A stretch of 32,000 nt of DNA from Gemmata obscuriglobus (GTDB lineage Bacteria > Planctomycetota > Planctomycetia > Gemmatales > Gemmataceae): NCBI RefSeq assembly GCF_008065095.1, contig NZ_CP042911.1, positions 570,001 through 602,000 on the forward strand, in the 5' to 3' direction. A program made the position numbers and the translations under genes. Below the pieces are notes generated by a model. That model did no database searches. It was not told the origin of the DNA and saw nothing but the letters and a program-made list of their open reading frames with translations. This document shows positions 1,248 to 18,844 of the stretch, piece by piece. Position 1 is the stretch's first letter, and every line of letters begins with the position of its first letter.

Positions 1248-2147
1248 GTGTCACGAACGCTTCTCGCCTTCGCCTGTTGGCTCACCTTCGCCCCGGCGGT
1301 CCTGGGGCAACCCGCGGCGGGCGGCCCGCGCAAGCTGCTGTACCCGGCCGCGCCGGCCGACGTGCCGGCGGTGCTGCGCCCGCACGTCGAAAAGCTCCTC
1401 GCGACCGATCAGAAGCCGCTCGACCCGGGCGCCGCGAAGGCCGACGGCGTGTACCTCCGGGTGCTGTCGCGGCAGTACGCGGTGGACGCGGACCTGAAGC
1501 CGGCCGGCTGGCTCGGCACCCGGCCCGTCGTGTTCCTGACCGTGCCCGAGACCGCCTACGGCCGCGACCTGCTCGGCGTGCTGTCGGCCATCGGCTACGA
1601 CCCCGAGGACATCATCGACGCCGAGACCGGCGTGGAGAAGGTGGCGGTGGTGTTCGCGTACCCCGACACGGTCCGCGAGGCCGACCCGAAGGCCGACGCG
1701 GTCCCGGACGACTGGGACCGGCGCGTGTTCCCGTCCACGTGGGACAACCTGTTCGCGCTGGCCGACCGGAGCACGTCCGATAAGGAGCGATTCGCAGTAC
1801 GGCCGGAGGGCGACAGGTTCCAGCCGACCAAGTTCCAGTTCCGCTCGGAAAAGGAGGCGGCGTTCATCGCGAGCTTCCCGGACGCGGGCAAGAAGCGCGT
1901 GCGCGCGATCGAGTACGCCGCGCTCCGGGACGCGGGCGGGGCGGACTGGGTGTACCGGCAGTCGGTGGAGCGGTTGTTCGGCGCGTCCGAGCACTACACC
2001 GGCGACGGGCGGACCAAGCTGACGCTGGCCGGCAAGAAGAAGCCGCGGGCCGGGTTCCCGGAGTTCCTCGCGCCGAACGCGGAGCTGAAAGGCTTACCGG
2101 CCGTTGCGGTGGTCAGCCTCGGGGCGCTGCGGGTGAGCGACAAGTGA
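1248..2147 (+). CDS. secreted hypothetical protein
   Basis: 299-aa ORF with GGAGG 5 nt upstream of GTG 1248. The N-terminus MSRTLLAFACWLTFAPAVLGQ looks like a signal peptide. Codon bias is high-GC like the neighbours. No domain recognised. Confidence 0.6.
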   Translation: MSRTLLAFACWLTFAPAVLGQPAAGGPRKLLYPAAPADVPAVLRPHVEKLLATDQKPLDPGAAKADGVYLRVLSRQYAVDADLKPAGWLGTRPVVFLTVPETAYGRDLLGVLSAIGYDPEDIIDAETGVEKVAVVFAYPDTVREADPKADAVPDDWDRRVFPSTWDNLFALADRSTSDKERFAVRPEGDRFQPTKFQFRSEKEAAFIASFPDAGKKRVRAIEYAALRDAGGADWVYRQSVERLFGASEHYTGDGRTKLTLAGKKKPRAGFPEFLAPNAELKGLPAVAVVSLGALRVSDK

Positions 2148-2485
2148 GCCCGAAATAATATGCGACTCGGAGTATTCGGGTCTGTAATTTCTTTTAAGTC
2201 TAGGTGCCGGAGGCGGAGAAATGGGCTGTCGTGTTACTCGACGTTAAAGCATTTCGGGAACGGGTGATCGCCCACCTACCTTATGAGGTTGGTGATTGTG
2301 TCGGCTAACCGCATCATGGCCGCTGGTTCAGCGCCACCTTGTGCTTTATCGGCGCTGACAAAATCTAGGAATGTAACAAGCGGCGTGTCTCGGGCGGGCG
2401 GGCATTTCCCGCTAGTGGCCTGCTACTCGTCGGAGCCAGTTGAGGCTGGTAGAATCGAATTATCTTCCCTCGCTACGGTTGCCCG

Positions 2486-3133
2486 ATGCCGTCCGGATCG
2501 CCTCTGGAACTCAATTCCGTCGAAGTGAACCATCCACAGGCGTCGCTCTTGTACCGTTTCGCGATCCCGACGATCGTCCGGTTGAGCCTTGACCCAACCC
2601 CGCTTCTCTCTGGTACTATGACGAGAAGTGTTACGGTCGAGTGGGTGTGTCAACCCGGTGGCAGACCGCCCGAGGTGTTCACGCGGGACATCGAATGGGC
2701 TCAGGTTCCACGGTACCTGACCAACCAGTGCGCTAAATGGTCGAATACCTGTAACGAAGAGGACATTAGTGAAGATGCGGCCATCGGCGTGATGGCGTTG
2801 TTGCTTCATGAATTGGTCGGAGCTGTCATACGCACAGTTCTCCAGATCGGCAGCGGGGGCGACTACCTGATCGAGATCCAGGGGTTGCCTCCGTTGCAGG
2901 CCGAGAGCAGTGGGGTCCGCGACGACCCGAACGGGTACGAATCGACGGCCCGACTGAAACAAAAGTGTGCCCAAGTGCTAACCAAAAGCGAGACCGGGTT
3001 TGCTTCCGTTGTGGCTTTTCGCCACCCACCCGATCAAGGGGTCCGTTGCCAACTTCATTACGTGTCCCGGACCGGCCCTGGTAGCAACTACCCGAAGGTA
3101 AAGAAACGCGGCCAGAAGAAGAAGCGACCATGA
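2486..3133 (+). CDS. hypothetical small protein, first gene of the low-GC insert (alternative start ATG 2618, 171 aa)
   Basis: ORF in about 50% GC DNA, where random ORFs of this length are unlikely. Its stop overlaps the next start as ATGA at 3130-3133. Contains ISEDAAIGVMALLLHEL, GSGGDYLIEIQG and LQAESSG. The C-terminal tail is basic: KVKKRGQKKKRP. Confidence 0.5.
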   Translation: MPSGSPLELNSVEVNHPQASLLYRFAIPTIVRLSLDPTPLLSGTMTRSVTVEWVCQPGGRPPEVFTRDIEWAQVPRYLTNQCAKWSNTCNEEDISEDAAIGVMALLLHELVGAVIRTVLQIGSGGDYLIEIQGLPPLQAESSGVRDDPNGYESTARLKQKCAQVLTKSETGFASVVAFRHPPDQGVRCQLHYVSRTGPGSNYPKVKKRGQKKKRP

Positions 3134-4599
3134 ACGCGTTGCTGATCGATCGAGACGGCATGGCGTCGCGCTTGGCGGCGGAAGGGAAGCTCGCGCTCGG
3201 AAGCGGGGACACGGAGCTTGCACACGCTCAATACTCAGCAGCCGCGAAACTGTTCGAGGCGCGAGCCAATTCGGCCTTGAAATCTGGCGACAAGCACCTT
3301 CTGCTATTTCTCGCCGCCAGCCATCACTTCTATGGCGGTGGATACGCGCGGGCACTACGAGTCGCACGGCGAGTTGAGCGCCGGTTGCTGCGAGCCGAGG
3401 TGCGACCTTTGTTCGAGCCGTTTATGCGCGACGTCGAAGCGCGTGCGGCTCCGGATTACATAGAGAAGGTTCGGAAGCGAATTTTTGAAGCAAGTAAATC
3501 GGGGCGGCATGTCGATGCCCTTGAAATCCTAAAAGGCCACCCGTTCATCTTTGACCGAACAGGGCTGGCGTTCATGCGGGCCTTTATTTGCGAGGAATTG
3601 AAGCGTTACCACGCCGCGACGTTGTTTTACCTTTCAGCGATGCAGTTCCGCCCCGAAGATCCCTCTCTCGACTTCTTGGCCGCGGCACTGCCATTGTCAC
3701 TGCCTGCGATGGGGCGGTTAGATGAGGCGTGGGAGTACGTCCAGTACCAACTGAAAGAGATCGACCACGCCATTACACATGTAAGTGCATCACTTGTGTG
3801 TCACCGGAGGGCTTCTCAGACCGAAGAAGGTCTCCAGCAAGAACTGCTGGGCGAACAAATAAAACACTTTGAAAATGGCTGGAAACGCTACCAAGAGATG
3901 CCGAAGGCGTTCCAGCAAGATCCAGACCTGTGCCTTTACATGAGCCTTTGTTTTGAAGCCGCGGCTTTTGCCCATTGGAAGCTAAATGCGAACGCACGCG
4001 CGCGGGACGTTTGCAACGAGGGGATTCAGTTTAACCCCAAATATCCGGGTCTCTGGACAATGCGAGGTTTGGTAACCCAGCCGGCCGTGCAAGCGTTCGA
4101 TGACTTCGAACGCGCCATCGAGTTGGGAGAAAAAGCTCATTACCCCTTCCTATACCTAGCACAGCGGGCGATGGAGGCTCAGGACTTCGCGCGCGCGAAA
4201 GTGATGACCGAGGAAGCGCTTCGCCGGAAGCCAGGCCGAACGATTCGCGGGCTACTTTTGAATTGGATGGCAGTTATTCGAGGACAAGAGGGGACGACGA
4301 TCGAAGAAATCGAAAGTCTGTTTCAGCAGGCAAAACAACTTGCTCCGGAGATTCCAGAGGTCGCAGAAAATCACGAATCGTTCCGTCAATTCGTTCGCGA
4401 CGCTCGTGAGCAGTCGACCGAGAAGGTGAAGCCCACTCCCGCTGCACCTCGGTCGAGAATTCAGGATGATTTCGATTTAGACTTGTTCCCAGTGGGGGAA
4501 TCTGACTCACGATGGAATCGACTTCAAGCCCAGTTCCGAGAACTTGAAGGTGCGGGCAGATATGCGGCCCACGAACAGATAATTAACATTAAAATATAA
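3130..4599 (+). CDS. helical-repeat (TPR-like) protein, second gene of the low-GC insert
   Basis: 489-aa ORF in about 50% GC DNA. The sequence looks all-helical, with repeated Ala/Leu/Tyr-spaced segments typical of TPR-like repeats, e.g. WKLNANARARDVCNEGIQFNPKYPGLW and YLAQRAMEAQDFARAKVMTEEALRRKP. No specific family recognised. Confidence 0.65.
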   Translation: MNALLIDRDGMASRLAAEGKLALGSGDTELAHAQYSAAAKLFEARANSALKSGDKHLLLFLAASHHFYGGGYARALRVARRVERRLLRAEVRPLFEPFMRDVEARAAPDYIEKVRKRIFEASKSGRHVDALEILKGHPFIFDRTGLAFMRAFICEELKRYHAATLFYLSAMQFRPEDPSLDFLAAALPLSLPAMGRLDEAWEYVQYQLKEIDHAITHVSASLVCHRRASQTEEGLQQELLGEQIKHFENGWKRYQEMPKAFQQDPDLCLYMSLCFEAAAFAHWKLNANARARDVCNEGIQFNPKYPGLWTMRGLVTQPAVQAFDDFERAIELGEKAHYPFLYLAQRAMEAQDFARAKVMTEEALRRKPGRTIRGLLLNWMAVIRGQEGTTIEEIESLFQQAKQLAPEIPEVAENHESFRQFVRDAREQSTEKVKPTPAAPRSRIQDDFDLDLFPVGESDSRWNRLQAQFRELEGAGRYAAHEQIINIKI

Positions 4600-4923
4600 T
4601 TTAAAATAATAGATACATTGGGGCGAATTGCCTCGCTGATCTAATTAAAAATTATGAATTAACTTGTGATTAATCTGATTAGCTAGAATACTCAATCAAC
4701 GTCCGGGGGCATTGCAAGTTCAAGCCTTGTCGGCTGGATCACTTTCGTACCACGCTCACCAGCACGATGCCATGCTGCACTTGTTTAGCCCCGTCTGGCT
4801 CGTGGTGCATTTGAGCCCTGCAGATCCGAACGCTGAGGTTACACCCGCCTGCGTCGGCAGGCGGATAGCGTTCACAACCAGCGAACCTGGAATTACTGAA
4901 ACCGCAATGACGGCCAACCACGG

Positions 4924-4959: not shown

Positions 4960-5988
4960 TCACTTCGGCGGGGTGAAGTCGGCGATGTAGAGCTGGGCCG
5001 CCCGCCCGCCCTCGCGGGACGAGGTCCACATCACCTTCGTGCCGTCGGGGTTGAACACCGGCAGCACGTCCTGGCCCGGGGCGAACGTGATGCGCGTCTT
5101 CTTGCCGGTCTCGGTGTCCATCCAGTGCAGGTCGTAGTTCGGCGGCGCGATGGGGTTCGAGTGGTCCGCGCCGGTGTAGATGATGTGCCGGTTGTCCTTG
5201 TACCAGTACGGCGCCCAGTACACCCACTTGTCGTCGCTCGTGAGCGCCTTCTCCCCGGTGCCGTCGGCGTTGATCACGTAGAGCTGGAGCCGGTCCTTCT
5301 CCTTGCGGTCGGCGCGGAACACCACCCTCGTGCCGTCGGGGCTGAAGAACGGGCCGCCGTTGTAGCAGTTCGCCACGTCGGTGATGCGCTTCACGTTGGT
5401 GCCGTCGGCGTTCATGGTGAAGAGCTGCACGTTCCCGGCGTTGCCGGCGCTGTACACGATCTTCTTGCCGTCCGCCGAGTAGCTCCCCTCGGCGGTGTAC
5501 ACCTTCGCGTCCGGGGTGAGGCACTTCAGCCCGGTGCCGTCGAGGCCGGCCTCGTAGATCTTCATGTGCGGGTCGAAGTCCCACGAGTACCGGCGGCGCA
5601 CGCCCTTCTTCTTGTCCTCCTCGCGCTGCTTGACCTCGGCCTCCTGGTGCTTCTTGGCGTCCGGGTCGGAGTGGCTGGAGGCGAACAGCACCCTCTTGCC
5701 GTCGGGGTGGAAGTAGCCGCAGGTGGTGCGCCCGACGCCCGGGCTGATGCGGGTCGCTTTGCCCGTCCGCAGGTCCATGATGAAGATCTGGTAGAACGGG
5801 TTGCCCGTGTCCTTCTCTTCGGCCTGGAAGATGACCCGGGTGCCGTCCGGCGAGAAGTACCCTTCGCCGGCCCGCACGTAGTCCGTTGTGAGCTGACGGA
5901 TGTTCTTCAGGTACGCCGCTTCGGCCCCCTTCCAGTCTTCGGGATCGGCGGCGGGCGCGAATGCGAGTGTGAGCAGAAGCGCGTTCAT
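4960..5988 (-). CDS. PD40 / TolB-like beta-propeller repeat protein, secreted
   Basis: Repeated PD40-type motifs: YFSPDGTRVIF, FHPDGKRVLF, YSADGKKIVY, FFSPDGTRVVF, FNPDGTKVMW. Short hydrophobic N-terminus MNALLLTLAFAPAA. Confidence 0.85.
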   Translation of the reverse strand: MNALLLTLAFAPAADPEDWKGAEAAYLKNIRQLTTDYVRAGEGYFSPDGTRVIFQAEEKDTGNPFYQIFIMDLRTGKATRISPGVGRTTCGYFHPDGKRVLFASSHSDPDAKKHQEAEVKQREEDKKKGVRRRYSWDFDPHMKIYEAGLDGTGLKCLTPDAKVYTAEGSYSADGKKIVYSAGNAGNVQLFTMNADGTNVKRITDVANCYNGGPFFSPDGTRVVFRADRKEKDRLQLYVINADGTGEKALTSDDKWVYWAPYWYKDNRHIIYTGADHSNPIAPPNYDLHWMDTETGKKTRITFAPGQDVLPVFNPDGTKVMWTSSREGGRAAQLYIADFTPPK

Positions 5989-6098
5989 GGAGCGTGACGT
6001 CCTCGTGCGTGAGGGAGCGGGCGCGAACCTTTGGTCCCCCAGTGTATCATTCCGGGGAAGCGGTCCGCCAGCACTCCTGACGTTGAGGGCGCGTTCCG

Positions 6099-6398
6099 AT
6101 GGACGAGCCGAAGCCGACGCCCTGCGGCCTGTGCGGTCGCGGGTTCCCGCCGCGCGACCTGACGCAACACCACTGCCTGCCGAAGGAAAAGGGCGGGACC
6201 GCGGGCGACGTGGCGATGATCTGTTCGCAGTGCCACGGGATGGTCCACGCGACCTACACGAACGCGACGCTGGCGGCCGTGTACCCGACCATCGAGCAAC
6301 TGCGGAAGGCCCCCGAACTGGTCGGGTTCATCAAGTGGGCGCGCAAACAGCCGGTCACGCGCAAGAAGAAGAACAAGCCGCGGAAGCGAAAACTGTAG
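6099..6398 (+). CDS. small HNH-type nuclease domain protein (YajD-like size)
   Basis: 99-aa ORF with CGLCG ... QHHCLPKEKGG ... ICSQCHGMVH, i.e. CxxC...HH...CxxCH zinc/HNH spacing. Basic tail TRKKKNKPRKRKL. Confidence 0.65.
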   Translation: MDEPKPTPCGLCGRGFPPRDLTQHHCLPKEKGGTAGDVAMICSQCHGMVHATYTNATLAAVYPTIEQLRKAPELVGFIKWARKQPVTRKKKNKPRKRKL

Positions 6399-6568
6399 GC
6401 GCGCAAAGCGCCCCGCATTCGCTCCCCCCGGCAACAAAGACGCCACAAGCGGCCGAATTGCGGTCGCGCGGAAGGGCGAGTCTGCGGTATTCTGAGCGCC
6501 CGACGCCACATTTCACACAACGGACATCTTCGCGAACCAATTGCAGGGTAAGATGCGTCCGTTAAGTG

Positions 6569-6671
6569 TGCGGTTCGGACACAATTCGAACCGCATCCGG
6601 CACGGAAATCGTGTGCCGCACCCCGAAACGTGATCTAGGTTCGATCACAGGACAAACGTCCCTCGAACCGC
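6569..6671 (+). promoter_or_regulatory. three consecutive hairpins plus a duplicated cgaaccgc segment (candidate leader/ncRNA)
   Basis: Hairpin 1: 6569-6577 tgcggttcg pairs with 6587-6595 cgaaccgca. Hairpin 2: 6598-6603 cggcac pairs with 6613-6618 gtgccg. Hairpin 3: 6630-6635 gtgatc pairs with 6643-6648 gatcac. A second cgaaccgc at 6664-6671 could pair with 6570-6577 instead. Confidence 0.3.
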
Positions 6672-6844
6672 GCGGAGTAGCAGCCGTGGACCGGACCGAC
6701 AGCGTGATGGCGTCGTTCATTCAGGAACTGGTGCGCCGGGCCGCCGAGAGCGCCCGCACCGCCCCCGGCGCCCGGGGCCAGGGCGACCCCGCCCACACCG
6801 AAGCCGCCGCACCCGTCGCACAAGCCAGCCGGTAACACCTCCAA

Positions 6845-6887
6845 CCGCCCCGCGGGCGCCGCGCAAAACGCGGCGCCCGCGGGGCGG
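6845..6887 (+). terminator. 19-bp perfect GC-rich hairpin upstream of the OPT gene
   Basis: ccgccccgcgggcgccgcg (6845-6863), loop caaaa, cgcggcgcccgcggggcgg (6869-6887). It lies 90 nt before the OPT start. No U-tail. Confidence 0.5.
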
Positions 6888-6976
6888 TCCCACGCACCTC
6901 CTTCACTTCGCGCGCGCCGGCCCGTAAGCTGTGGCTCAACTCTCCGCCACAGTACCGCACTCGCACGGGCCAAAAT

Positions 6977-9643
6977 ATGTCGTCCGAAGTGAAACCGGAC
7001 CCCGGGTTCCAGCCGTTCGTTCCGGCCTCCGAAGCGCCGCGGGAGTTCACCCTCTCGGCGGTCGCCGCGGGGACCGGGCTCGGGCTCATCTTCGCCGCGT
7101 CGTCGCTGTACCTCGTCCTCAAAGTCGGGATGACGGTGTCCGCGTCCATCCCGGTCGCGGTGCTGGCGATTACCGTGTTCCGGGCGCTGTCGAAGGCGTT
7201 CAAAATTCGCCAAGCGACGGTCCTCGAAAACAACATCGTTCAGACGGCCGGGTCCGCCGGCGAGAGCATCGCGTTCGGGGTCGGCGTGTCGATGCCGGCG
7301 CTGCTGCTGCTCGGGTTCGGGATGGACCTGGGGCGGGTGATGGTCGTTTCGATCCTCGGCGGGCTGCTGGGCATCCTGGTGATGATCCCGCTGCGCCGGG
7401 CGTTCATCGTGAAAATGCACTTCCAGCCCGGGAAGAAGGACCAGGGCGAAACGCTCCTGTACCCCGAGGGCACCGCGTGCGCGCAGGTGCTCATCAGCGG
7501 CGAGAAGGGCGGCACCACCGGCAAAACGGTGTTCATCGGGTTCGGGCTCGCGTTCCTCCACAAGTTCCTGACGGAGGGGATGAACCTGTTCGTCGCCACC
7601 GCCAAGGTGCCGGTGGCCTTCATCAACAAGGCCGCCGTGTTCTCGACGGAGATGGCGTCCGAGCTGCTCGGGGTGGGCTACATCATCGGGCTCCGCACCG
7701 CCGCGATGATGATGGGCGGCGCGGTCCTCGGCTACCTCGTGATCCTGCCCATCATCTACTTCGTGGGCGAGAACAACCCGAACGCGATCCCGCCCGGGGT
7801 GAAGCCCATCAAGGACATGAGCCTGTCGCAGATCCGCAACGCGTACCTGCTCTACATCGGCGCCGGGTGTGTGGCGTCCGCCGGCATCATCAGCATGTTA
7901 AAAACGCTGCCGCTGATCGTGCGCAGCTTTCGCTCCAGCCTGTCGAGCGTCAGCGTCGGGGCGGGCGGCGACGTGCCCCGCACCGACCGCGACATGCCGA
8001 TGAGCTGGGTGCTCGGGGGGACCGTCGTCCTCGTCGCGCTTCTCGCGCTGTTCCTGGCGAGCGAGGTGTCCGTTGTGACCGCCCTGCTCGGCGCGCTTTT
8101 GGTCGTTCTGTTCGGGTTTCTCTTCGTGACGGTGTCGGCCCGGCTCACGGGCGAAATCGGCTCGTCGTCGAACCCGATCTCCGGCATGACCACCGCGACG
8201 CTGATGATCACCTGCCTCATTTTCCTGGCGCTGGGCATGACCAGCCCGATCGACCGCGTGCTGGCCCTGTCGGTCGCGGCCGTGGTGTGCATCGCCTCTT
8301 CAAACGGCGGGACGGTCGCGCAGTCGCTCAAGACCGGCTACCTCGTCGGCGGGACGCCGCGGTACATGCAGTACGCGATCATGGCCGGTGCGTTCGTCTC
8401 GGCTCTGGTCATCGGCGGCACGCTCATCTTCCTGCTGAACAAGCCCGGCACCGTGTACAGCTCGAAGCCGGAGAACGTTCCGCCCCTCACACTCGCCCCG
8501 GCGGAACTGGCTCGTCTGAGCCAGACCGAGATGTATGAGGGCAAGACGTACAAGATCATGGACGCCCGGAACGGCGAGCTGATCAAAGCGGCCGACGGGT
8601 ACAAGCCGCGTGAGGAGGTGCTGAAGTACAAGCCCGGGCGCTACCTCGTGGAGCCGGACACCGGAACGGTGGCGATCCTCAAGGACGACACCATCATGGG
8701 GCAGTTGAAGACGCGGGACGACGGCACGCCGGTCGAGCGGAAGTTCGACGCCCCCAAGACGCGGGTGCTCGGGATCGTCATCAACGGCGTTCTGAGTAAG
8801 GACCTGAACTGGACGATGGTGGCCATCGGGGCGATGATCGCCGTCATGCTGGAGCTGTGCGGCGTGTCGGCGCTCGCGTTCGCGGTCGGGCTGTACGTGC
8901 CGATCCAGTTCTCGGTGACCATCTTCATCGGCGGTGTCGTCCGCTGGGCGGTGGACAAGAAGTACGCCGCCGAGGCGGCGCGCGACATCGCCGCGGCCGG
9001 CGACGACCCGGCGAAAAAGGCCCAGGCCGAGGTGGAGGCGATCCGGAAGGCCGAAACCAGCCCCGGGGTGCTGCTCGCGAGCGGGTACATCGCCGGCGGG
9101 TCGATCGCGGGCGTGCTGATCGCGTTCCTGGCGTTCAGCGACACGCTCCCGCGCGACCTGTCCGCGTTCCAGTACCGGTCCGCGCCGATCGGGGCGGAGC
9201 TGCCGCTCGAGGACGCGGCCGCGGCGGTCGCGGGGCGCGAGCTGCCCGACGGGTCGGAGGAGGCGCGTAAGAAGCTCGCGGGCGAGATCGTCGCGCTGAA
9301 CGAGGACGACCTGCCGCCCCAGTGGGTGAAGGTGCCGGCGGGGACGAAGCTGAAGATCGCGCCCGGGGAGAAGGGGGAGGAGTACACGGCCCCGAGCGAC
9401 ACCACCCTCGGCGCGGTCGCGAAGGAGAAGCTGGGGCGGACCTGGAAGGCCGCGCAGCTTCTGGAGCTGAACAAGGGCGCGCTGAAGGTGCCGGAAAAGC
9501 TGCCGGCGCAGGCGGAGGTGTTCGTGCCGCAGCCGCAGTGGGCCACGCTGATCCCGTTCGGGCTGCTGGTGGCGCTGCTGGCGGCGGTCGGGCTCGGGCT
9601 CCTGCTGAGGTCGGCCCCGGAGCAGGCGGAGCAGGCGGCGTAA
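6977..9643 (+). CDS. OPT-family oligopeptide transporter with extra loop domains
   Basis: N-terminal REFTLSAVAAGTGLGLIFAASSLYLVLKVGMTVSASIPVAV and NIVQTAGSAGESIA are typical OPT superfamily motifs. There are many hydrophobic helices throughout the 888 aa. Confidence 0.85.
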   Translation: MSSEVKPDPGFQPFVPASEAPREFTLSAVAAGTGLGLIFAASSLYLVLKVGMTVSASIPVAVLAITVFRALSKAFKIRQATVLENNIVQTAGSAGESIAFGVGVSMPALLLLGFGMDLGRVMVVSILGGLLGILVMIPLRRAFIVKMHFQPGKKDQGETLLYPEGTACAQVLISGEKGGTTGKTVFIGFGLAFLHKFLTEGMNLFVATAKVPVAFINKAAVFSTEMASELLGVGYIIGLRTAAMMMGGAVLGYLVILPIIYFVGENNPNAIPPGVKPIKDMSLSQIRNAYLLYIGAGCVASAGIISMLKTLPLIVRSFRSSLSSVSVGAGGDVPRTDRDMPMSWVLGGTVVLVALLALFLASEVSVVTALLGALLVVLFGFLFVTVSARLTGEIGSSSNPISGMTTATLMITCLIFLALGMTSPIDRVLALSVAAVVCIASSNGGTVAQSLKTGYLVGGTPRYMQYAIMAGAFVSALVIGGTLIFLLNKPGTVYSSKPENVPPLTLAPAELARLSQTEMYEGKTYKIMDARNGELIKAADGYKPREEVLKYKPGRYLVEPDTGTVAILKDDTIMGQLKTRDDGTPVERKFDAPKTRVLGIVINGVLSKDLNWTMVAIGAMIAVMLELCGVSALAFAVGLYVPIQFSVTIFIGGVVRWAVDKKYAAEAARDIAAAGDDPAKKAQAEVEAIRKAETSPGVLLASGYIAGGSIAGVLIAFLAFSDTLPRDLSAFQYRSAPIGAELPLEDAAAAVAGRELPDGSEEARKKLAGEIVALNEDDLPPQWVKVPAGTKLKIAPGEKGEEYTAPSDTTLGAVAKEKLGRTWKAAQLLELNKGALKVPEKLPAQAEVFVPQPQWATLIPFGLLVALLAAVGLGLLLRSAPEQAEQAA

Positions 9644-9900: not shown

Positions 9901-10953
9901 TCAGCGGCGGCCGTTCGGCGGCGGGCCGCCGCCGGGCTTGGTCATGACCTCTTGGGCGCGGCGCTGGAACTTGGTCATCTGCTCCCGCAGCCCGGCGTCG
10001 CCGCGCTGGAGCAGGTCCAGTTCGTGCTGGATCTCGGCCGACAGGCGCCGCAGCTCGGTCTCCTGCCGGGCGATCATGGCCCGCTCGCGGGCCATCGACA
10101 CTTCCATCTGCCGCATCTGCTGCTCGAGCGCGTCTTCGTCCTCGCGCAACTGCCGGCGGTCGTCTTCGAGCTTCCGCTTCTCTTGCGTGATCTTCGCGCT
10201 CTCGCGCTCCAGCTCGTCGCCCCACTCCTCGAGCTCGTTGCGGGTCTTCGGGACGGGCGGGGGCGGGGCCAGTTGGCCGGTGGCGATCTGCTCCTCGATC
10301 GCGCCCAGTTGCGCGTTCAGCTCCGCGAGCTGCGTGTCCTTCTCCGCGACCGCCGCCTCGAACTCCTTCTCGCGAACGAGGAACTGCTGCTCGGTGTTGC
10401 TCGCCTCCTGGAGCAGGTGCTTCATCTCGTCGAGCAGCGTGCGCAGCTCCTTGTTCTCGGCCTTCAGCCGCTGGTTCTCGCCGACCGGCGACTCGTCGAA
10501 CCGGTTACCGCCCGGGGACAGTTCCGCGAGGTGGTTCAGGGCGCCGGCGATGGCGCTGCCCGGGTCCGATGCAAAGGAGCGGCCGCCCCCGGGCGCCGGC
10601 CCGCGCCGCCCGATCACGCTCCGCGGCGCTTCGGGCGTCCCGGCGAACGACGACGGCGGGGCCGCGTACGAGGGCGGCGGCGCGGCGGTGCGGGCCGGCG
10701 GCACCGGGACCGATCCGGACTTGCCCGGCATGCGCAGGCGCGCCAACAGGTCGCTGGTGCCCCCGCCCCAGGCCACCGGGGCGACCGGCGGCGGTGAGAG
10801 CGGCGCCGGAGGTTCTTGTTCTTCAACAAGTTCGACGAGCGGGTCGGGCGTGGACGCGGTCGCGGCGATGGGCGGCGGGGTCGATGCCAGAAGCCGGCGG
10901 CGCAGCTCGGCGGCCGTAAGCGATTGCTCGGAGGGCGGGTTCGGGTTCGCCAT
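9901..10953 (-). CDS. Pro-rich N-terminus plus long coiled-coil protein, hypothetical
   Basis: The ORF extends to 11136, but ATG 10953 (MANPNPPSEQ) is the first start after the compositionally atypical upstream stretch. The C-terminal two thirds are heptad-like and charged, e.g. ENQRLKAENKELRTLLDEMKHLLQE and KITQEKRKLEDDRRQLREDEDALEQQMRQME. Confidence 0.6.
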   Translation of the reverse strand: MANPNPPSEQSLTAAELRRRLLASTPPPIAATASTPDPLVELVEEQEPPAPLSPPPVAPVAWGGGTSDLLARLRMPGKSGSVPVPPARTAAPPPSYAAPPSSFAGTPEAPRSVIGRRGPAPGGGRSFASDPGSAIAGALNHLAELSPGGNRFDESPVGENQRLKAENKELRTLLDEMKHLLQEASNTEQQFLVREKEFEAAVAEKDTQLAELNAQLGAIEEQIATGQLAPPPPVPKTRNELEEWGDELERESAKITQEKRKLEDDRRQLREDEDALEQQMRQMEVSMARERAMIARQETELRRLSAEIQHELDLLQRGDAGLREQMTKFQRRAQEVMTKPGGGPPPNGRR

Positions 10954-11280
10954 AGTGTTAAGTTCCAACTCCCGGTCTCCACGTTCCAAGTTCTGACAGC
11001 GCAACGGCTTGCCGCGACGGCCTGCTGCTCCGTGATGGGGACTTGGCGCCGGGTACTTGGAACTGAGAGTTTCGACGGTCCTGGCGGAATTATCCTCTTG
11101 CCTAGCCTGAATGAGCCTAGGCCGCAGAACCATCAAGTCAAATCAAAATCCCGCGGCCGGTCGCACCGCTTGTGCGGACGGCGCGGCCGATAACTTGCGA
11201 CCCGCCAACCCGAATCGGCGAACTCGCCAACGCCGTCCCGGGAGCGCCGTTAAACCGGCTAGACTGTCCCAATCGGCGGC

Positions 11281-11294
11281 GCGCTCGCGAGCGC
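11281..11294. promoter_or_regulatory. 14-bp perfect palindrome in a divergent intergenic region
   Basis: gcgctcgcgagcgc is its own reverse complement. It sits between the divergently transcribed coiled-coil gene and giant VWA gene. Confidence 0.25.
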
Positions 11295-11499
11295 TAGCCC
11301 CATCATAGGGACACGGCCTCGGGCCGCGCAAAACTTCGGGCCACTGCCCCGCCGGTCGGACCGGGACCGGGGCGGGTGTTGCCCGCGCGGTTTCGCGTAG
11401 CGGGCTGCCCGCGGCGTGCCGTAAAATCAAGGTTTGGTTCGTACTTGTTCGGGCCGTCCGACCCTCGCCGGACGACCTACCTGGAGGAGCGACGGGCAG

Positions 11500-14400
11500 A
11501 TGAACCTTCTGAAACGGCTGCGGGTGCTACCGGTGCTGTTGGGGGTGGGCGCCACCCTCGCGGCTCTGGGTACCACCCTGTTCGGCGACATGCGCACGGC
11601 CCCGCCCGGCGCCCCCACACTCGAACCCGCCCGCCCCGACGGCGGGCGGTTCGTCGAGGACCTCGTCGCCACCAAGTTCAGTAACACCCCCGCGCTGACG
11701 TACCAGCCGCGGGACGGCGAGCTGATCTTCGCGTGGCAGATCCAGCCGCCCCTGGCCCCCCAGGCGGCCCGCCCGCGGGACGTGCTGGTGGTGGTGGACA
11801 CCACCGCCAGCCAGGCCGGCCGGCCGCTCCAGCAGGCCCGGAACATCATTACCGGGCTGGCCGCCGGGCTGACCGCCGAGGACCGGGTGAGCGTGTGGTC
11901 GCTCAGCACCCCGAAGGCGACCCGGGCCCTCACGCGCGACTTCCAGCCGGCCACCTCCGAGAACCTGGCCGAGGCCGCTCGGGCCCTCACCGAGGTGGAG
12001 TACGGCTCCGGCGCCGCCGACCTCGCGGGCGGGCTGGACAAGGCCCTCACCACCATGGCGCCCAACCGCAGCCGGCACCAGGTGGTGCTGTACCTGGGCG
12101 ACGGCGAGAGCGCGTTCCAGCCGGTGAGCGAAGGGGCCCGCATCGCTCTGGGTAACCGGATGGACCGCGGCGACGTGTACTTCTTCGCCGTGCCGCTCGG
12201 GCTGAAGCTCGAACCGCAGAACCTGCACGGGCTGGCCGCCCTCACCGGCGGCGCCGTGGTCCGCCTGCAAGAGGACGTCGCCGCCGCGCCGGGCCGGAAG
12301 GCCTTCGTGGACCGGCTCAAGGCCGCCCTCGACGTGCCCGTCGCGAAGCCCGAGAAGTGGACGTTCGGCGGCGAGGTGGGCGAGCTGTACCCGACCAAGC
12401 TGCCGCCGCTCCGCGCGGACCAGGGGACGCTGGTGATGGGCCGGCTCGCGAAGCCCGCCGCGGCCGCCGTCAGCGTCGCGGTCAGCGCGACGGTGAACGG
12501 CCGCCCGGTGGAGCTGAAGCTGTCGCAGCCGCTCCCGGCCCCGGCCGTCGACAACTTCTTCATGAACCGCATGGTCGACCAGTGGAAAGCCGCGCCGCAC
12601 AAGGACGCGCCGGCCATGCTGCGGTCCGACCGCGCCCTGGCGCTGGCCAGCACGCAGGTGAAGCTGTACCGCGACGAGTTCCTCACCCAGGCGGTGTGGG
12701 CCATCAGCGCCGACCGGTTCGACGAGGCCGAGAAGCTGTACGCCGCCGCCGCCAAGGTGGACCCGACCGACAAGGAGGCCGCGAAGGGCGCCGCCCTGGC
12801 CGCCCAGATGAAGGCCGGCAAGGTCACCAAGGCCGCCCTCGCCGAAGAGGTGAACAAGAAGGTTAACGCGCAGAAGATCTCGCCGAACGAGGCGATCCGC
12901 ACCGTCCTCCAGGACCCGAAGGTGAACGAGCCGGTGCCGCCGGCCCCGGCCGCCCCCGGCGCCGCGGCGGACCTGCTGAAGGAGGCCGCCGCCCGCCGCC
13001 AGATCGAGGAGCAGCGGTACCGCGTGCTGGCCGACGCGACCGTCCGCCGGGCCCGCCAGTTGCTCCGCGCCGACCCCGAGGGCGCGTACCAGGACCTGAA
13101 GCGGCAGCGGGACGACATCCTGGCCTACGACGGGATCGGCGACGACGCCCGGCGCCAGCTCGTCGCGGACCTCGAGGCGGTCATGCGCGAGGTGTTCGTG
13201 AAGGGGGCCGAGATCAAGCGCCAGGCCGACGCCGACCGCCAGAGCGTGGCCCGCACCAAGCAGCGGCTCAGCGAGTTCGACCGGCAGGCCGACGAGCAGG
13301 CCCGCGACAAGGACCGGATCGAGCAGTTCCGCCAGCTCATGAAGGAGGCCCGGTACGACATCGCGTACCAGGAGGCCCAGCTCATGGTGCAGGAGAAGAC
13401 CAACCGCGGCCTCCCGGTGCCGGTGGCCAACACCGCCAGCTACATCATCGGCCAGCACGCCACCCAGTTGCGCGAGTGGCGCGAGCTGACCCGGATCCGC
13501 GAGGACCGGTTCCTGCTCGCCATGATGCAGACCGAGAAGTCCCACGTCCCGTACCCCGACGAGCCGCCGGTCCACTTCCCGCCGGCCTCGGTGTGGCGCC
13601 AGCTCACCGGGCTGCGCCGCGAGGCGTACATGAACTCGAACCTCGGGCCCAACGCCAGCGAGAGCCAGCGGCGCCTCAAGAGCGCGATCGAGGACACCGA
13701 GGTCGACCTGGAGAACAAGAACCTCGTCGACACCCCGCTGTTCGAGCTGCTCGGGTTCCTGGCCAAGAAGTACAACGTGTCGTTCGTGGTGATGGAGGAG
13801 TACTTCAAGGCCGACGGCGTGCCGAACATCCGCGAGGAGAAGCCGAAGCTGGCCGCGACCCAGCTCCGCGGGCTCAAGCTGGGCAACTTCCTGGACCTGG
13901 TCCTCGTGTCGATGAACGCCACGTTCATCGTCCGCCCGGACTACATCGAGATCACCACGTTCCAGCGCAAGCTGGAGGAGAAGGTGACCCGGGTGTTCCC
14001 GGTGGCCGACCTGGCGATCCCGATCCCCAGCTCGGTGAACCTGCAGACGCTGCAGCTGAACCAGAACGTGCAGAACCAGACGCTGGCCATCTTCGGGGCG
14101 GCCAGCGGCGCGGCCAACTTCCTCGGCGGCCAGTTCGGCGCCCAGGGCGGCATCAACGGGCTGGGGAACAACAACAACCCGCTGGGCGGCGCGAACGGGA
14201 ACCCCGGGCCGTTCGGCAACCAGGGCGGCAACCTGGGCCAGAACCCGAACGGGCCGGGCGGCGGGTTCGCCGGCGTCGGCGGCGGCCAGATCGGCCAGTT
14301 CGGTAACCTCGGCGGCCAGTTCGGCATCCAGGGCGGCGACCAGAGCCGGCTCCTGATGTCGCTGATCTTCGAAACCGTTGCCAAGGGCGAGTGGGCCCAA

Positions 14401-16035
14401 ATGCAAGGGGTGTCCCCGCAGCCCGGGGACGGCGAGTCCGACGCGCCGCTGCTGACCGCGGCCCAACTGAACTCGTTGGGGTACTACCCGCCGGCCCGGG
14501 CGCTCATCATCCGCGGCACCAGCCGGTACCACTCGGCCGCCAGCGTCAAGCTGCGGAAGCAGGACGGCATGGTCGGGCTGCCCGCCAAGCCGCCGGGCGG
14601 CGCGTTCGCGATCGGGCCGGGCAACGGCAACATGGGGCTGCCGGGCAACGGCAACATGGGCGTCGGGGCGGCGGTCGCGGCCGAGAAGCCCGCGCTCGTG
14701 AACCCGAAGGTGGACGTGGTGGCGATGCGCAAGGCGATCGGCGGCGACCCGCGGACCATGTGGAGCAAGGCGATCGACCAGACCGTGACCGACCCGGGGC
14801 TGATCGTCGCGTGCGCCGAGTTCCTGATGGAGTTCGACGAGTTCGGGCACGCGGCCGAGGTGCTGAAGGGGAACCTGCGGAAGGGGCTGGCGACCGAGGC
14901 GTGGGCGCACGAGGCCCTGGCCGTGGCGCTGCAGGCCGGCAACGGCCCGCCGGTGGAAGTCGAGCGGGCGGCGGTGTCCGCGATCGACCTCGACCCGGCC
15001 GACGCCAAGGCGTACCTGAAGGCCGCGCGGGCCGAGGACGGGCTGAAGAACCACGCCCAGGCGGTCGCGTTCTGCAAGCGGGCCGCCGAGTGCAGCCCGA
15101 ACGACCCGACCCCGTACGCCAACGCGATGGCCTACGCCGAACGGTCCACCGACGTGCGGAGCGACGCCGTGCTGTGGGCGGCCAACAACCTGCTCAAGCG
15201 GGACTGGAACACCTCCGACGGCGTGGACTACCACAAGCAGGTGAACGACCGGCTGCCGAAGCTGGCGGCCAAGCTGCAGGCGGCCGGCCAGAAGGCGGAC
15301 GCGCTCGCCAAGGTGGCCGCCGAGCAGACCCGGCGCGACCTGGTGATCGAGCTGCAGTGGCAGGGCAGCGCGGACCTGGACCTGGTGGTCACGGAGCCGA
15401 CCGGGTCGGTGTGCTCGCCCGTTCACAAGCGCACCACCGGCGGCGGCGTCCTCAAGGCCGACCTGCTGGACCAGCAGAACGACCGGTCCGAGGTGTACAC
15501 CGCGGCCAGCGCGTTCAGCGGGGTGTACACGGTCACCGCGAAGCAGGCGTTCGGCCGCCCCATCGGGGGCCGCGCCCAGGTCAAGGTGACCCGGTTCAAG
15601 GGCACCCCGCAGGAGAGCACCGACCTGCTCGACGTTCCGCTGACCGGGACGCCGGTTGAGGTCAAGCTGGTCGGCGGCTCGCGGACCGAGCTGGCGGCCG
15701 TTCAGGACGAAATGAACGGGGACTCGGACCTGCGGTCCGAGACGACCGGCTCGGCGGTGACCGGCGGCTCGTCGGGCATTGGCGCCGGGTTCGGCCGCAC
15801 GGGCTCGGCGCTCACCTCGCCGATCACCTCGTCGAACGGCCCCACGATGCCGGTGGTGGCGACCGAAACCGAGGCCCGCAAGCCGGGCATGGACGGCGCC
15901 GGGGACGTCCGGGCGACGTACAAGCTGAACCCGGACCGCAAGACCTACAGCGTCACGGTCAGCCCCGTGTTCGCCGGGGTGAAGGGCGAGCTGGCACTGC
16001 CCAAGGTGCCGCTGCTGCCGGGTTCCGAGAAGTAA
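11500..16035 (+). CDS. giant secreted multidomain protein: VWA domain, coiled coil, split secretin-N-like module with low-complexity linker, TPR-like region, DUF2135-like C-terminal region
   Basis: GGAGGAG lies 10 nt upstream of ATG 11500. Signal/anchor MNLLKRLRVLPVLLGVGATLAALG. VWA with a MIDAS-like VVVDTTASQ ... YLGDGES. The C-terminal WQGSADLDLVVTEPTGSVC ... GGGVLKADL resembles DUF2135, as seen at the end of bacterial VIT/VWA proteins (from memory). Confidence 0.8.
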   Translation: MNLLKRLRVLPVLLGVGATLAALGTTLFGDMRTAPPGAPTLEPARPDGGRFVEDLVATKFSNTPALTYQPRDGELIFAWQIQPPLAPQAARPRDVLVVVDTTASQAGRPLQQARNIITGLAAGLTAEDRVSVWSLSTPKATRALTRDFQPATSENLAEAARALTEVEYGSGAADLAGGLDKALTTMAPNRSRHQVVLYLGDGESAFQPVSEGARIALGNRMDRGDVYFFAVPLGLKLEPQNLHGLAALTGGAVVRLQEDVAAAPGRKAFVDRLKAALDVPVAKPEKWTFGGEVGELYPTKLPPLRADQGTLVMGRLAKPAAAAVSVAVSATVNGRPVELKLSQPLPAPAVDNFFMNRMVDQWKAAPHKDAPAMLRSDRALALASTQVKLYRDEFLTQAVWAISADRFDEAEKLYAAAAKVDPTDKEAAKGAALAAQMKAGKVTKAALAEEVNKKVNAQKISPNEAIRTVLQDPKVNEPVPPAPAAPGAAADLLKEAAARRQIEEQRYRVLADATVRRARQLLRADPEGAYQDLKRQRDDILAYDGIGDDARRQLVADLEAVMREVFVKGAEIKRQADADRQSVARTKQRLSEFDRQADEQARDKDRIEQFRQLMKEARYDIAYQEAQLMVQEKTNRGLPVPVANTASYIIGQHATQLREWRELTRIREDRFLLAMMQTEKSHVPYPDEPPVHFPPASVWRQLTGLRREAYMNSNLGPNASESQRRLKSAIEDTEVDLENKNLVDTPLFELLGFLAKKYNVSFVVMEEYFKADGVPNIREEKPKLAATQLRGLKLGNFLDLVLVSMNATFIVRPDYIEITTFQRKLEEKVTRVFPVADLAIPIPSSVNLQTLQLNQNVQNQTLAIFGAASGAANFLGGQFGAQGGINGLGNNNNPLGGANGNPGPFGNQGGNLGQNPNGPGGGFAGVGGGQIGQFGNLGGQFGIQGGDQSRLLMSLIFETVAKGEWAQMQGVSPQPGDGESDAPLLTAAQLNSLGYYPPARALIIRGTSRYHSAASVKLRKQDGMVGLPAKPPGGAFAIGPGNGNMGLPGNGNMGVGAAVAAEKPALVNPKVDVVAMRKAIGGDPRTMWSKAIDQTVTDPGLIVACAEFLMEFDEFGHAAEVLKGNLRKGLATEAWAHEALAVALQAGNGPPVEVERAAVSAIDLDPADAKAYLKAARAEDGLKNHAQAVAFCKRAAECSPNDPTPYANAMAYAERSTDVRSDAVLWAANNLLKRDWNTSDGVDYHKQVNDRLPKLAAKLQAAGQKADALAKVAAEQTRRDLVIELQWQGSADLDLVVTEPTGSVCSPVHKRTTGGGVLKADLLDQQNDRSEVYTAASAFSGVYTVTAKQAFGRPIGGRAQVKVTRFKGTPQESTDLLDVPLTGTPVEVKLVGGSRTELAAVQDEMNGDSDLRSETTGSAVTGGSSGIGAGFGRTGSALTSPITSSNGPTMPVVATETEARKPGMDGAGDVRATYKLNPDRKTYSVTVSPVFAGVKGELALPKVPLLPGSEK
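14083..14346 (+). repeat. Gly/Asn/Gln/Phe low-complexity segment (FG-containing) inside the giant protein
   Basis: Translation: IFGAASGAANFLGGQFGAQGGINGLGNNNNPLGGANGNPGPFGNQGGNLGQNPNGPGGGFAGVGGGQIGQFGNLGGQFGIQGG. Confidence 0.8.
14617..14660 (+). repeat. in-frame 24-nt tandem duplication (PGNGNMGL/PGNGNMGV)
   Basis: ccgggcaacggcaacatggg occurs at 14617-14636 and again at 14641-14660. Confidence 0.85.
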
Positions 16036-16069
16036 CTGACGCGACCGCCAAAACCTGAGCGGTTGCGAA

Positions 16070-16119
16070 CCCGCGGCCCGACCGGGATGTCTAATCCCGG
16101 TCGGGCCGCGGGCGTTTCT
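16070..16119 (+). terminator. intrinsic terminator after the giant VWA gene
   Basis: cccgcggcccgaccgggat (16070-16088), loop gtcta, atcccggtcgggccgcggg (16094-16112). This 19-bp perfect stem is followed by cgtttct. Confidence 0.7.
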
Positions 16120-16187
16120 GGGACGTTTCACGTCGCCCGGTAACGAGTCGTAAAGTCTCGCTCGGTAAGGCCATGCGGGTTTAGGAC

Positions 16188-17624
16188 TTGCGGCCGGGCA
16201 ACTTGAGGCTTCACGGCGTGCCGTGCGGCCGCTTACAATGTGTGCGGCGCGATCCCGCGCCGGAGGACGTGATCATCAGCAAAGCATTCGACACGCAGCG
16301 GGAAGAGTTCTCGGTCGCGAGCGAGCGGGCGGTCCTGGTCAGCGTGGCGCTGCCCGAGCGCCCGTGGCCCAACGAGGCCGACCCGTGCGACGAGATCCGC
16401 GGGCTGGCGGAGACCGCCGGGGCCACCGCCGTGGCCGAACTCACGCAGCGGCGCCACGACATCCAGCTCGCCACCTACCTGGGCACCGGCAAGGTCGGGG
16501 AGCTGCACGACCTGGTCGAGTCGGCCGACGCGGACGTGGTCATCTTCGACAACGACCTGCTGCCGAACCAGGCGCGGAACCTGGAGCAGGCGCTGGGCGT
16601 GAAGGTGCTCGACCGCAGCGAGCTGATCCTGGACATCTTCGCCAGCCGCGCCCGCACGGCCGAGTCGAAGCTCCAGGTGGAGCTCGCGCAGCTCGAGTAC
16701 TCGCTCCCGCGGCTGAAGCAGATGTGGAGCCACCTGTCGCGCCAGAAGGGCGGCGGGATCGGGCTCCGCGGCCCGGGCGAGACCCAGCTCGAAACCGACC
16801 GCCGGCTGGTGCAACACCGCATCCGCGACCTGAAGCGCAAGCTGGACGAGGTGCTGGCCCGCAAGGAGCGCGAGGTGAAGAGCCGTGCGGAGGAGCACAC
16901 GGTCTCGCTCGTGGGCTACACCAACGCGGGCAAGTCGCAGCTGATGCACACGCTGACGAAGGCCGACGTGTACGTCAAGAACCAGCTCTTCTCGACGCTC
17001 GACACGCGGACCCGGCAGTGGCACATCCGCGACTGGGGCCGGGTGCTGCTGTCGGACACCGTCGGGTTCATCCGCGACCTGCCCCACCACCTCGTCGCGT
17101 CGTTCAAGGCCACGCTGTCGGAGGCCCGGCACGCGAAGCTCCTGCTCCACGTCGTGGACGCGAGCAGCCCGCAGGCCGAGGTCCACATCAACGCCGTGAA
17201 CACCGTGCTGAAGGAACTGGACTGCGGCGACCGGCCGACGCTCCTCGTGCTGAACAAGGTCGACCGGCTCCAGGACCGCTCGCTGCTCACGCTGCTGGAG
17301 GCGCACCACCCGCGGGCGGTGGCGGTGAGCGGGCTGACGGGCGAGGGCCTGGACCAGCTCGAAGACGCGGTGATGGAGGCGCTCGCGGAGGACTTCGCGG
17401 AGGCCGAGATCGTCACGGACTCGGGCAACGGGCGGGTGCTGGCGTTCCTGAACGCGCACGCCGAAATCTACCGCCAGGAGTTCCGCGACGACGAAAACGA
17501 GGTGGTGATCCGGTGCCATCTGCCGAAGCACCTGCTGCACCACATCGCCGGCCCGACGGTGAAGGTGCGGTTCGTGGAGCGCACGGGCCGACCGGAAGCG
17601 GCGGGGCGGCGCGAGGTCGGGTGA
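16188..17624 (+). CDS. hflX: GTPase HflX
   Basis: HflX-type N-terminal domain (ERAVLVSV ... LDRSELILDIFASRARTAESKLQVELAQLEY). G motifs GYTNAGKS, DTVGF and NKVD. The start is uncertain: TTG 16188, GTG 16218 or GTG 16269. Confidence 0.9.
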   Translation: MRPGNLRLHGVPCGRLQCVRRDPAPEDVIISKAFDTQREEFSVASERAVLVSVALPERPWPNEADPCDEIRGLAETAGATAVAELTQRRHDIQLATYLGTGKVGELHDLVESADADVVIFDNDLLPNQARNLEQALGVKVLDRSELILDIFASRARTAESKLQVELAQLEYSLPRLKQMWSHLSRQKGGGIGLRGPGETQLETDRRLVQHRIRDLKRKLDEVLARKEREVKSRAEEHTVSLVGYTNAGKSQLMHTLTKADVYVKNQLFSTLDTRTRQWHIRDWGRVLLSDTVGFIRDLPHHLVASFKATLSEARHAKLLLHVVDASSPQAEVHINAVNTVLKELDCGDRPTLLVLNKVDRLQDRSLLTLLEAHHPRAVAVSGLTGEGLDQLEDAVMEALAEDFAEAEIVTDSGNGRVLAFLNAHAEIYRQEFRDDENEVVIRCHLPKHLLHHIAGPTVKVRFVERTGRPEAAGRREVG

Positions 17625-18325: not shown

Positions 18326-18677
18326 GGTCTGGCGCCCCGAATCCCGACCGGCCGCGTTGAGCCGTGTATTTTATGAGGCGCCGAACCCGGGCGGTTCACT
18401 CGTTGACACACGCCGCGGCCCGCCGCTGTAACGGGGGTTACAGTACCGATCGGTAGCAGCAGGTGGGGCACGGGCTGGACATTCGCTGCCGTCCGACTGG
18501 CCACGGACTACCACTTCGCTGGGCGACTGCTACCCACAAATCCCACGCAATTTTTGCCGCTCACGGGGTTCCGGTCCCGCTGCCATCGGAATGATAGGTG
18601 AGGCCGAATCCGGTTGAAAAGTGACGGCGGTCTGGAAACAGGCATCGGTGAGGCGGTGCTGTCGCACCCGCACACCA

Positions 18678-18810: not shown

Positions 18811-18844
18811 CTACATGAAGGAGGTTACTTTGATCAGCCGCCGC

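Follow-up and report, generated by a model that had tools for sequence, protein, structure and literature searches.

A translationally coupled gene pair of Planctomycetota encoding a nuclease-like protein of an undescribed family and its TPR-type partner

The genome of the planctomycete Gemmata obscuriglobus contains two adjacent genes, here called A and B, that are both annotated as hypothetical (exact database matches) and that differ in composition from the DNA around them. What do these genes encode, do their products act together, and in what process? Planctomycetota have large genomes and complex cells, their repertoire of defence and conflict genes is almost uncharted, and the standard catalogues are empty for A-B. 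Here we address these questions computationally, starting from a window of 32,000 nucleotides (nt) that holds the pair (NCBI RefSeq contig NZ_CP042911.1, positions 570,001 to 602,000, forward strand); coordinates in this window count from its first letter. We find that A and B are paired far beyond chance, that A appears from its sequence to be the founding member of an undescribed family and has a predicted nuclease-type core, and that B is predicted to be a tetratricopeptide-repeat (TPR) superhelix. We consider it likely that the two proteins make up a two-subunit nuclease-like/TPR complex.

A conserved pair of coupled genes

Both open reading frames (ORFs) and the ATGA overlap of their stop and start (Table 1) are present as described in a first-pass annotation of this DNA, which had been made from the letters alone (ORF list, sequence). 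The peptides that it had quoted from A are found there as well: ISEDAAIGVMALLLHEL, GSGGDYLIEIQG, LQAESSG and the tail KVKKRGQKKKRP. Two shorter public annotations of A have later starts (GobsT_05120, 171 amino acids (aa); C1280_30630, 152 aa) and lose the conserved residues H16, P17, R32, D36 and P37. As the N-terminus of A is conserved from residue 1, the 215-aa start is right and the shorter versions begin too late. In one metagenome locus (L022) the gene call overlooked A altogether.

Searching homologous loci with tblastn, we found that B follows A directly wherever the locus extends far enough, in genomes as well as in 10 metagenome loci, and one contig judged from its called genes shows the same pair. 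This survey had been set as a check beforehand, and the co-occurrence that it reveals, together with the gene overlap and the natural fusions described below, bears out the earlier view of a single operon of two linked genes. The ATGA junction itself is kept in nine diverged loci (L002, L007, L008, L009, L010, L013, L014, L020 and L021) that are otherwise saturated at synonymous sites, and in L012 the genes overlap by 1 nt (TAATG). All-against-all clustering of the ORFs of 17 loci recovered A in 17/17, B in 15/17 and nothing else in common; the two loci that lack B have no downstream DNA or carry an insertion.

A third conserved gene was considered and rejected, since only A and B are shared, an antisense cluster is the shadow of A, and an ECF sigma gene occurs in only four loci. 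In these four loci the ECF-type sigma-70 gene precedes the pair (L002, 7107-7760; L009, 2821-3612; L017, 1585-2388; L021, 2242-2835), and in L002 and L009 it is directly divergent. The presence of this gene may reflect synteny among relatives, or chance, as such genes are common in these genomes.

The two proteins also occur as one. In at least nine representatives of 491-702 aa, all diverged from one another, a single polypeptide holds A, a basic stretch and the conserved N-terminus of B, with the basic tail of A serving as the linker. Three contigs, each from a different sample, carry fusion P0072 with one and the same sequence, and fusion P0092 was recovered on two contigs; this recurrence indicates that the fusions are real genes. 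No fusion of the A domain to a partner other than B was seen. Fusion of genes is a classical sign that their products interact physically or functionally, and the natural A-B fusions thus suggest that the two proteins interact. We also considered a programmed frameshift within the run of Lys codons as a route to an A-B fusion and rejected it, because the sequence holds no X XXY YYZ slippery heptamer; the B frame is open upstream of its ATG.

To which family does A belong? A word-indexed search returned 48 homologues, none of them with a Pfam domain, and an exhaustive profile search returned 292 cluster representatives at E≤1e-3, 102 of them at E≤1e-30. Neither A nor 22 of its homologues had a match in Pfam, NCBIfam, PADLOC or PHROG, a sequence profile search of the PDB gave only a chance match (HisI, E 1.1), and a literature search found no paper describing the A-B family. 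The first-pass annotation had been unable to place either protein in a named family, in agreement with these results and with the scans of B in the four libraries, which gave only the sub-threshold TPR match described below. The relationship of A to DUF4365 that it had raised was not upheld, with no profile match at E≤1 for A or any of the 22 family members.

A is a real gene, and purifying selection on it is strong: the ratio of non-synonymous to synonymous substitution (dN/dS) is 0.11 against Gemmata algarum and 0.08 against the metagenome locus L029. To place the family taxonomically we scanned 185,579 species genomes, one per species, with a single peptide pattern of A. All 14 loci found (14/14) are in Planctomycetota, and their hosts are Gemmata, Fimbriiglobus, Frigoriglobus, Urbifossiella, other Gemmataceae and Isosphaeraceae.

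Predicted fold of A, its candidate active site and its TPR-type partner

We modelled A with AlphaFold2 using the family alignment, and built a second model of A and B concatenated with a deeper alignment. The model of A has a predicted local distance difference test score (pLDDT) of 89 and a predicted template modelling score (pTM) of 0.86, and its fold is reproduced by the second model. It divides into an N-terminal alpha/beta domain, a core and a tail (Table 1). The predicted elements of the N-terminal domain are helices at residues 11-15, 21-35 and 76-88 and strands at 46-55 and 63-70. Conserved residues in this domain are H16 (127/138), P17, R32 (137/142), D36, P37, R47 and W71 (155/167); conservation here and below was counted over 191 family sequences. 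The core consists of a helix at 91-111, strands at 114-119, 126-130 and 137-146, a helix at 151-167 and strands at 170-180 and 185-194 (DSSP). Between the two models the limits of the first three strands vary slightly (113/114-118/119, 126/127-130/131 and 137-144/146). Its alpha-beta-beta-beta-alpha-beta order, seen in two independent models, is the restriction-endonuclease-like topology by which the PD-(D/E)xK superfamily is defined (PMC3424549).

Within this core the acidic residues E96, D126 and E140 fall at the positions expected from the canonical PD-(D/E)xK motif. The first-pass annotation had noted a loose resemblance of A to a PD-(D/E)xK layout, and the predicted topology and the placement of these acidic residues sustain it. 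It had added that the expected lysine was not evident. At the canonical (D/E)xK lysine position the family indeed has a serine (Ser142, 157/162), but a near-invariant lysine, K160, is present on the second core helix, following the third strand, and this answers the remark. A lysine migrated to the second core helix, an arrangement termed 'PD-EXX-K', is documented for Pa4535 (PDB 1y0k; PMC3424549). Further conserved residues are Y127 (155/164) in the second strand, G143 (160/162) next to Ser142 in the third strand, and Q163 (153/157) in the second core helix.

Foldseek searches with the model of A gave no match at E<1e-3 in the PDB or BFVD, the best having E 7.7e-3 with a TM score of about 0.3 (PDB) and E 4.1e-3 (BFVD). 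These weak matches are mostly of the PD-(D/E)xK fold and include the CidB and CinB nuclease domains, AdnAB, DdmD, Cas4 SSO0001, tRNA-splicing endonuclease subunits, ACE1, Rai1, phage exonucleases, UL24 and Holliday junction resolvase. Based on the topology, the conserved residues and the dominance of PD-(D/E)xK folds among the weak matches, we treat A as a probable, though not proven, PD-(D/E)xK-type nuclease of the 'PD-EXX-K' variant. A tRNA-splicing-endonuclease active site of the Tyr-His-Lys type was also considered. The TSEN/EndA structural matches are weak (E about 0.02), and while Y127 and K160 are kept, H108 is present in just 114/171 sequences, so this type of site was rejected.

The serine at the canonical lysine position and the lack of any Foldseek match below E 1e-3 weigh against nuclease activity, as does the result that no sequence profile ties A to any nuclease family. 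A could instead be non-enzymatic, a binding domain derived from a nuclease fold that forms a structural or regulatory complex with B. The best structural matches of A include the non-catalytic CidB ND1-ND2 and TSEN15, and every match is weak. However, E96, D126, Y127, E140, S142, G143, K160 and Q163 are near-invariant in a family with ~30% overall identity, which is the pattern of an active or ligand site, and the PD-EXX-K arrangement has precedent (PMC3424549). We consider a non-enzymatic A quite improbable.

The Lys/Arg-rich tail that ends A is predicted to be disordered (pLDDT <50 in the A+B model, residues 199-219). Such basic tails are typical for members of the family: in 98 unfused homologues the final 22 residues have a mean net charge of +5.6.

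B is modelled as about 25 helices with pLDDT mostly >90. Foldseek returned 197 PDB matches at E<1e-3, with TPR superhelices at E about 1e-7, and the top structural matches are OGT, SPY (SPINDLY), APC/C subunits, Ski3, BBS4 and TTC7. The Pfam TPR score of the window B (16.1 bits) is below the cut-off of 23.5, but homologues pass the Pfam TPR cut-offs (P0092, TPR_2 39.9 vs 27; P0051, TPR_14 24.4 vs 23.5). The model, the structural matches and these homologues all agree with the earlier description of B as a TPR-like helical-repeat protein. No match to an HTH, RHH, AbrB-type or P-loop/nucleoside triphosphatase (NTPase) domain was found in B (Pfam/NCBIfam, PDB Foldseek). In word-indexed searches with B, generic TPR proteins dominate and only four true orthologues appear; the orthologues used here come from the DNA that follows A.

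B evolves faster than A, with a mean pairwise identity over 120 pairs of 32% vs 39%. Conservation within B is 0.43 over residues 1-170 vs 0.32 over residues 171-430. Beyond the repeats the model places a disordered linker (pLDDT 49-58 at residues 647-672 of the concatenation) and then a helix (674-703). The C-terminal tail carries a family-wide motif, R-x5-7-[VL]-L-x-[AG]-[GA]-A, in fused and unfused forms alike (FRELEGAG in the window). This motif, held on its disordered linker, could dock into the TPR groove. The window B continues for 13 residues after the motif and into the AT-rich DNA, as would follow from loss of its original stop.

Table 1. Coordinates of the A-B locus and its features within the window
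Feature	Position	Strand	Basis and remarks
Gene A, 215 aa	2486..3133	+	ORF call; WP_148087582.1, hypothetical protein; undescribed nuclease-like family (predicted)
Gene B, 489 aa	3130..4599	+	ORF call; WP_010043671.1 / GobsT_05130; predicted TPR-type helical-repeat partner of A
ATGA stop/start overlap of A and B	3130-3133	+	Sequence; translational coupling
A residues 1-90, N-terminal alpha/beta domain	2486..2755	+	Model and conservation
A residues 91-195, restriction-endonuclease-like core	2756..3070	+	Model and conservation
Candidate catalytic E96	2771-2773	+	First core helix; kept in 158/172
Candidate catalytic D126	2861-2863	+	Start of second strand; kept in 161/164
Candidate catalytic E140	2903-2905	+	Third strand; kept in 160/161
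Candidate catalytic K160	2963-2965	+	Second core helix; kept in 155/158
A residues 196-215, Lys/Arg-rich tail, net charge +8	3071..3130	+	Disordered in model
B residues 432-488, disordered linker (432-457) and C-terminal helix	4423..4596	+	Model
Block shared with Gemmata algarum, 86% nt identity	2477..3214	+	blastn; A and first 28 codons of B
Low-GC islet holding only A, B and intergenic flanks	2100..4900		100-nt GC scan; borders approximate
Very AT-rich spacer directly 3' of B	4600..4710		GC 0.28 over 4600-4699

Recombination, decay and the possible role of the pair

We compared the window with G. algarum and found that its copy of A-B is recombinant relative to that species. Only the block listed in Table 1 is matched by blastn, with no match upstream or downstream, and sliding identity drops from 0.90 to 0.39-0.5. 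Synonymous divergence (dS) amounts to 0.59 for A and 0.21 for B codons 1-28, and reaches about 3.2 (saturated) in B codons 35-420; at the protein level A is 87% identical and B 42%. Such a jump marks a recombination breakpoint some 30 codons into B, at the 3' end of the block, and goes beyond faster protein evolution. G. algarum and L029 are concordant along the pair (A 80%, B 59%), indicating that the body of the window B is the imported part.

Copies of the pair also decay. A stop codon cuts B to its conserved N-terminal 192 residues in L006 (8624-9202) and L007 (6290-6868), where A is intact, and the truncation is the same in two independent assemblies (JGI, ENA). B is fragmented in L005/L015 and in L017. 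In a metagenome-assembled genome (MAG) of Gemmataceae (L018, 6444-9797) A is split after residue 147 by an insertion of ~3.3 kb; the insertion carries a 761-aa ORF (7234..9519), and beyond it the locus resumes with the rest of A and the beginning of B.

The foreign composition that the first-pass annotation ascribed to the islet is real. Its content of guanine plus cytosine (GC) is 0.54-0.58 vs 0.72 (1-2147) and 0.67 (4960-9643) in the flanks, and the spacer after B has 0.28 GC vs 0.68 for the window. Across host genomes the A-B module is AT-richer than both flanks in 10/11, and its neighbour genes differ from genome to genome. Together, low GC, unrelated contexts, recombination and decay mark A-B as dispensable and exchanged, not as a pair of core genes, and they fit an accessory conflict module.

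Because the pair behaves as a dispensable and horizontally exchanged module, its most likely role would be in conflict, and a role in defence or conflict is plausible. The reading that we favour, tentatively and with a little less than even confidence, is a TPR-regulated two-subunit nuclease that serves most likely in defence or abortive infection. A would be a metal-dependent phosphodiesterase of the PD-(D/E)xK fold, with a site formed by E96, D126 and E140 and the lysine moved to K160. B is predicted to be a superhelix of about 12 TPR repeats, whose synthesis the ATGA overlap would couple to that of A. The better-conserved N-terminal third of B probably holds A, as its first ~30 codons travel with A in recombination, the truncated B of L006 and L007 keeps exactly this part, and the fusions place the B N-terminus right after the tail of A. 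TPR grooves usually bind ligands, and the variable, exchangeable remainder of B may bind a protein or peptide whose binding gates the nuclease activity of A. A-B would then be an NTPase-less effector-plus-sensor unit.

The same architecture could be read as an addiction module of the toxin-antitoxin (TA) kind, in which A is a nuclease toxin and the N-terminal part of B neutralises it by direct binding, without sensing. A tightly coupled two-gene unit with variable contexts, low GC and frequent decay would suit such a module, and the intact A that L006 and L007 keep beside the N-terminal 192 residues of B would be tolerable if that part neutralises A. TA genes adjoin the pair in two loci. In L001, from an uncultured member of the Planctomycetota, the pair stands between a HipBA TA set (6290-7816) and a DndE/AAA_23 (DndD-like) cluster (10112-16359), and in L028 the A-B fusion gene P0092 is followed after about 0.8 kb by a SocA/Panacea-domain gene (203 aa, 7916-8527). 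However, B is 440-490 aa long and is devoid of the DNA-binding domain typical of type II antitoxins, the effector gene comes first in order, and a stable fusion in nine lineages is unusual where a TA pair depends on differential stability. Nor would this reading account for the large, variable TPR array. The pair does not fit the type II TA systems, in which a small DNA-binding antitoxin is expected, as B is a 489-aa TPR protein with no HTH, RHH or AbrB-type match. A TA-like module of the broader kind appears very unlikely to us.

We then asked whether the genomic neighbourhood supports a role in defence, scanning 127 flanking ORFs of 16 loci against Pfam and PADLOC, without a formal background. 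No clear enrichment of defence genes was seen among them, the level being about that of chance; the poor cataloguing of defence genes in Planctomycetota is a caveat on such counts. L001 is the only clear defence-island context among the loci. For the defence or toxin-type function proposed in the first-pass annotation the evidence is mixed.

Several results speak against a conflict-related nuclease complex. PADLOC holds no family at E≤1 for A or B, the Pfam families of the flanking ORFs are mostly housekeeping (response regulators, GDSL lipases, ECF sigma, PALP, Thy1 and RecD2), and Dnd/Pbe-type PADLOC matches, in keeping with the context of L001, come from at most 2/127 flanking ORFs. Homologues of A are absent from the IMG/VR viral contigs, PLSDB plasmids and GenBank phages searched. 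Sequencing errors may account for some of the broken copies, which stem from long-read MAGs, and the concatenated A+B model has a pTM of 0.69 and is uninformative on the A-B interface. The family seems limited to Planctomycetota, and a lineage-specific cellular role is also possible.

In such a role A-B would process or repair nucleic acids in Gemmataceae and their relatives among the Planctomycetota, B being the scaffold or targeting subunit. The named genomes with the family are all Planctomycetota, A is under strong purifying selection, its neighbours are mostly ordinary metabolic or regulatory genes, and no link to mobile elements, phages or plasmids was found; PD-(D/E)xK enzymes moreover fill many housekeeping roles (PMC3424549). 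A core cellular factor is harder to reconcile with the absence of conserved context even between two Gemmata species, with GC below that of the host in 10/11 genomes, with the replacement of the body of B by recombination, with truncated or disrupted copies in several genomes, and with only 14 loci in the 185,579 species genomes of the single-peptide-pattern scan. We regard this explanation as unlikely.

Returning to the favoured TPR-regulated nuclease, a more specific form can be proposed. A-B might be an undescribed minimal immune module of Planctomycetota that lacks an NTPase, in which a PD-EXX-K nuclease is gated directly by a TPR sensor. The sensor body would be swapped by recombination at the first ~30 codons of B, like a specificity cassette, and the module would exist both as a pair and as a fusion. 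We view this form as doubtful.

The surroundings of the islet in the window hold genes for a DUF362 protein, a 299-aa hypothetical protein, a PD40/Tricorn-like protein, a small ORF with a weak HNH match and an OPT transporter. The small ORF (6099-6398, +; 99 aa) follows B at a distance of 1.5 kb, where GC is normal, and has Cys/His motifs, the weak Pfam HNH match and, as in gene A, a Lys/Arg-rich C-terminal tail, RKKKNKPRKRKL. Two milder GC dips occur at 18000-19500 and 28500-30000 (0.63-0.64 vs about 0.69). Scans of the window for tRNA genes and Rfam families gave no match, and so no tRNA-linked integration site. Neither direct nor inverted repeats convincingly flank the islet, and the repeat search gave no sign of a mobile-element end. 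Promoter and terminator scans of the A-B region stayed at chance level, the sole sigma-70-like hexamer pair there (4583-4610) being no more than chance expects.

Comparison with known systems

Avs/AVAST and other STAND (NLR-like) anti-phage proteins combine an N-terminal effector, often a PD-(D/E)xK nuclease, with an NTPase and a C-terminal TPR sensor. A-B resembles them in its predicted nuclease-type effector, in its long, fast-evolving TPR array and, in some lineages, in forming a single polypeptide. It differs in that A-B is usually two genes and in that no NTPase/STAND module was found in A, B or the fusions; B and the linkers of the fusions consist only of TPR helices or disordered segments. 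Membership of the Avs/STAND group was rejected, since there is no PADLOC match and the defining NTPase is without trace in A, B and the fusions.

Among anti-phage systems, a two-gene operon of a small protein and a TPR partner is also known from Bacillus cereus, where BcTir and BcTpr act as a complex (bioRxiv 10.1101/2023.05.26.542521). In that system the small partner is a TIR protein and an NADase resides in the N-terminus of the TPR protein, whereas in A-B the candidate enzyme is the small protein A and B is without a catalytic domain. The two systems share no homology.

Control of a PD-(D/E)xK-type nuclease by a co-encoded second protein, as we propose for A-B, is described for the defence systems Hachiman HamA/HamB (PMC11914072) and KELShedu (bioRxiv 10.1101/2025.09.13.674623). 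Their partner is a helicase or a double-stranded-DNA-binding protein, not a TPR array, and no sequence match to A-B is evident.

The PD-(D/E)xK superfamily itself, in particular Pa4535 (1y0k), shares with the model of A the core topology and the order of a Glu in the first helix, an Asp in the second strand, a Glu in the third strand and a Lys in the second helix. A differs by its additional conserved N-terminal domain of 90 residues and its basic tail; it has no profile link to superfamily members and weak structural matches. Its likeness to 1y0k is one of description.

A-B adds a new family of about 300 diverged clusters with a testable site hypothesis, E96/D126/E140/K160, and the kept overlap and natural fusions back its partnership unusually well. 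As a cellular nuclease, the pair would represent a nucleic-acid processing factor specific to this lineage. Should it prove to be an immune or toxin module, it would show that a TPR sensor can work with a nuclease effector with no need of the NTPase switch by which Avs/NLR-type systems are defined, and the pair would be an example of the exchange of a sensor cassette via recombination. Set beside the known systems, A-B is an undescribed family and a variation on the known theme of a nuclease effector with a repeat-protein partner.

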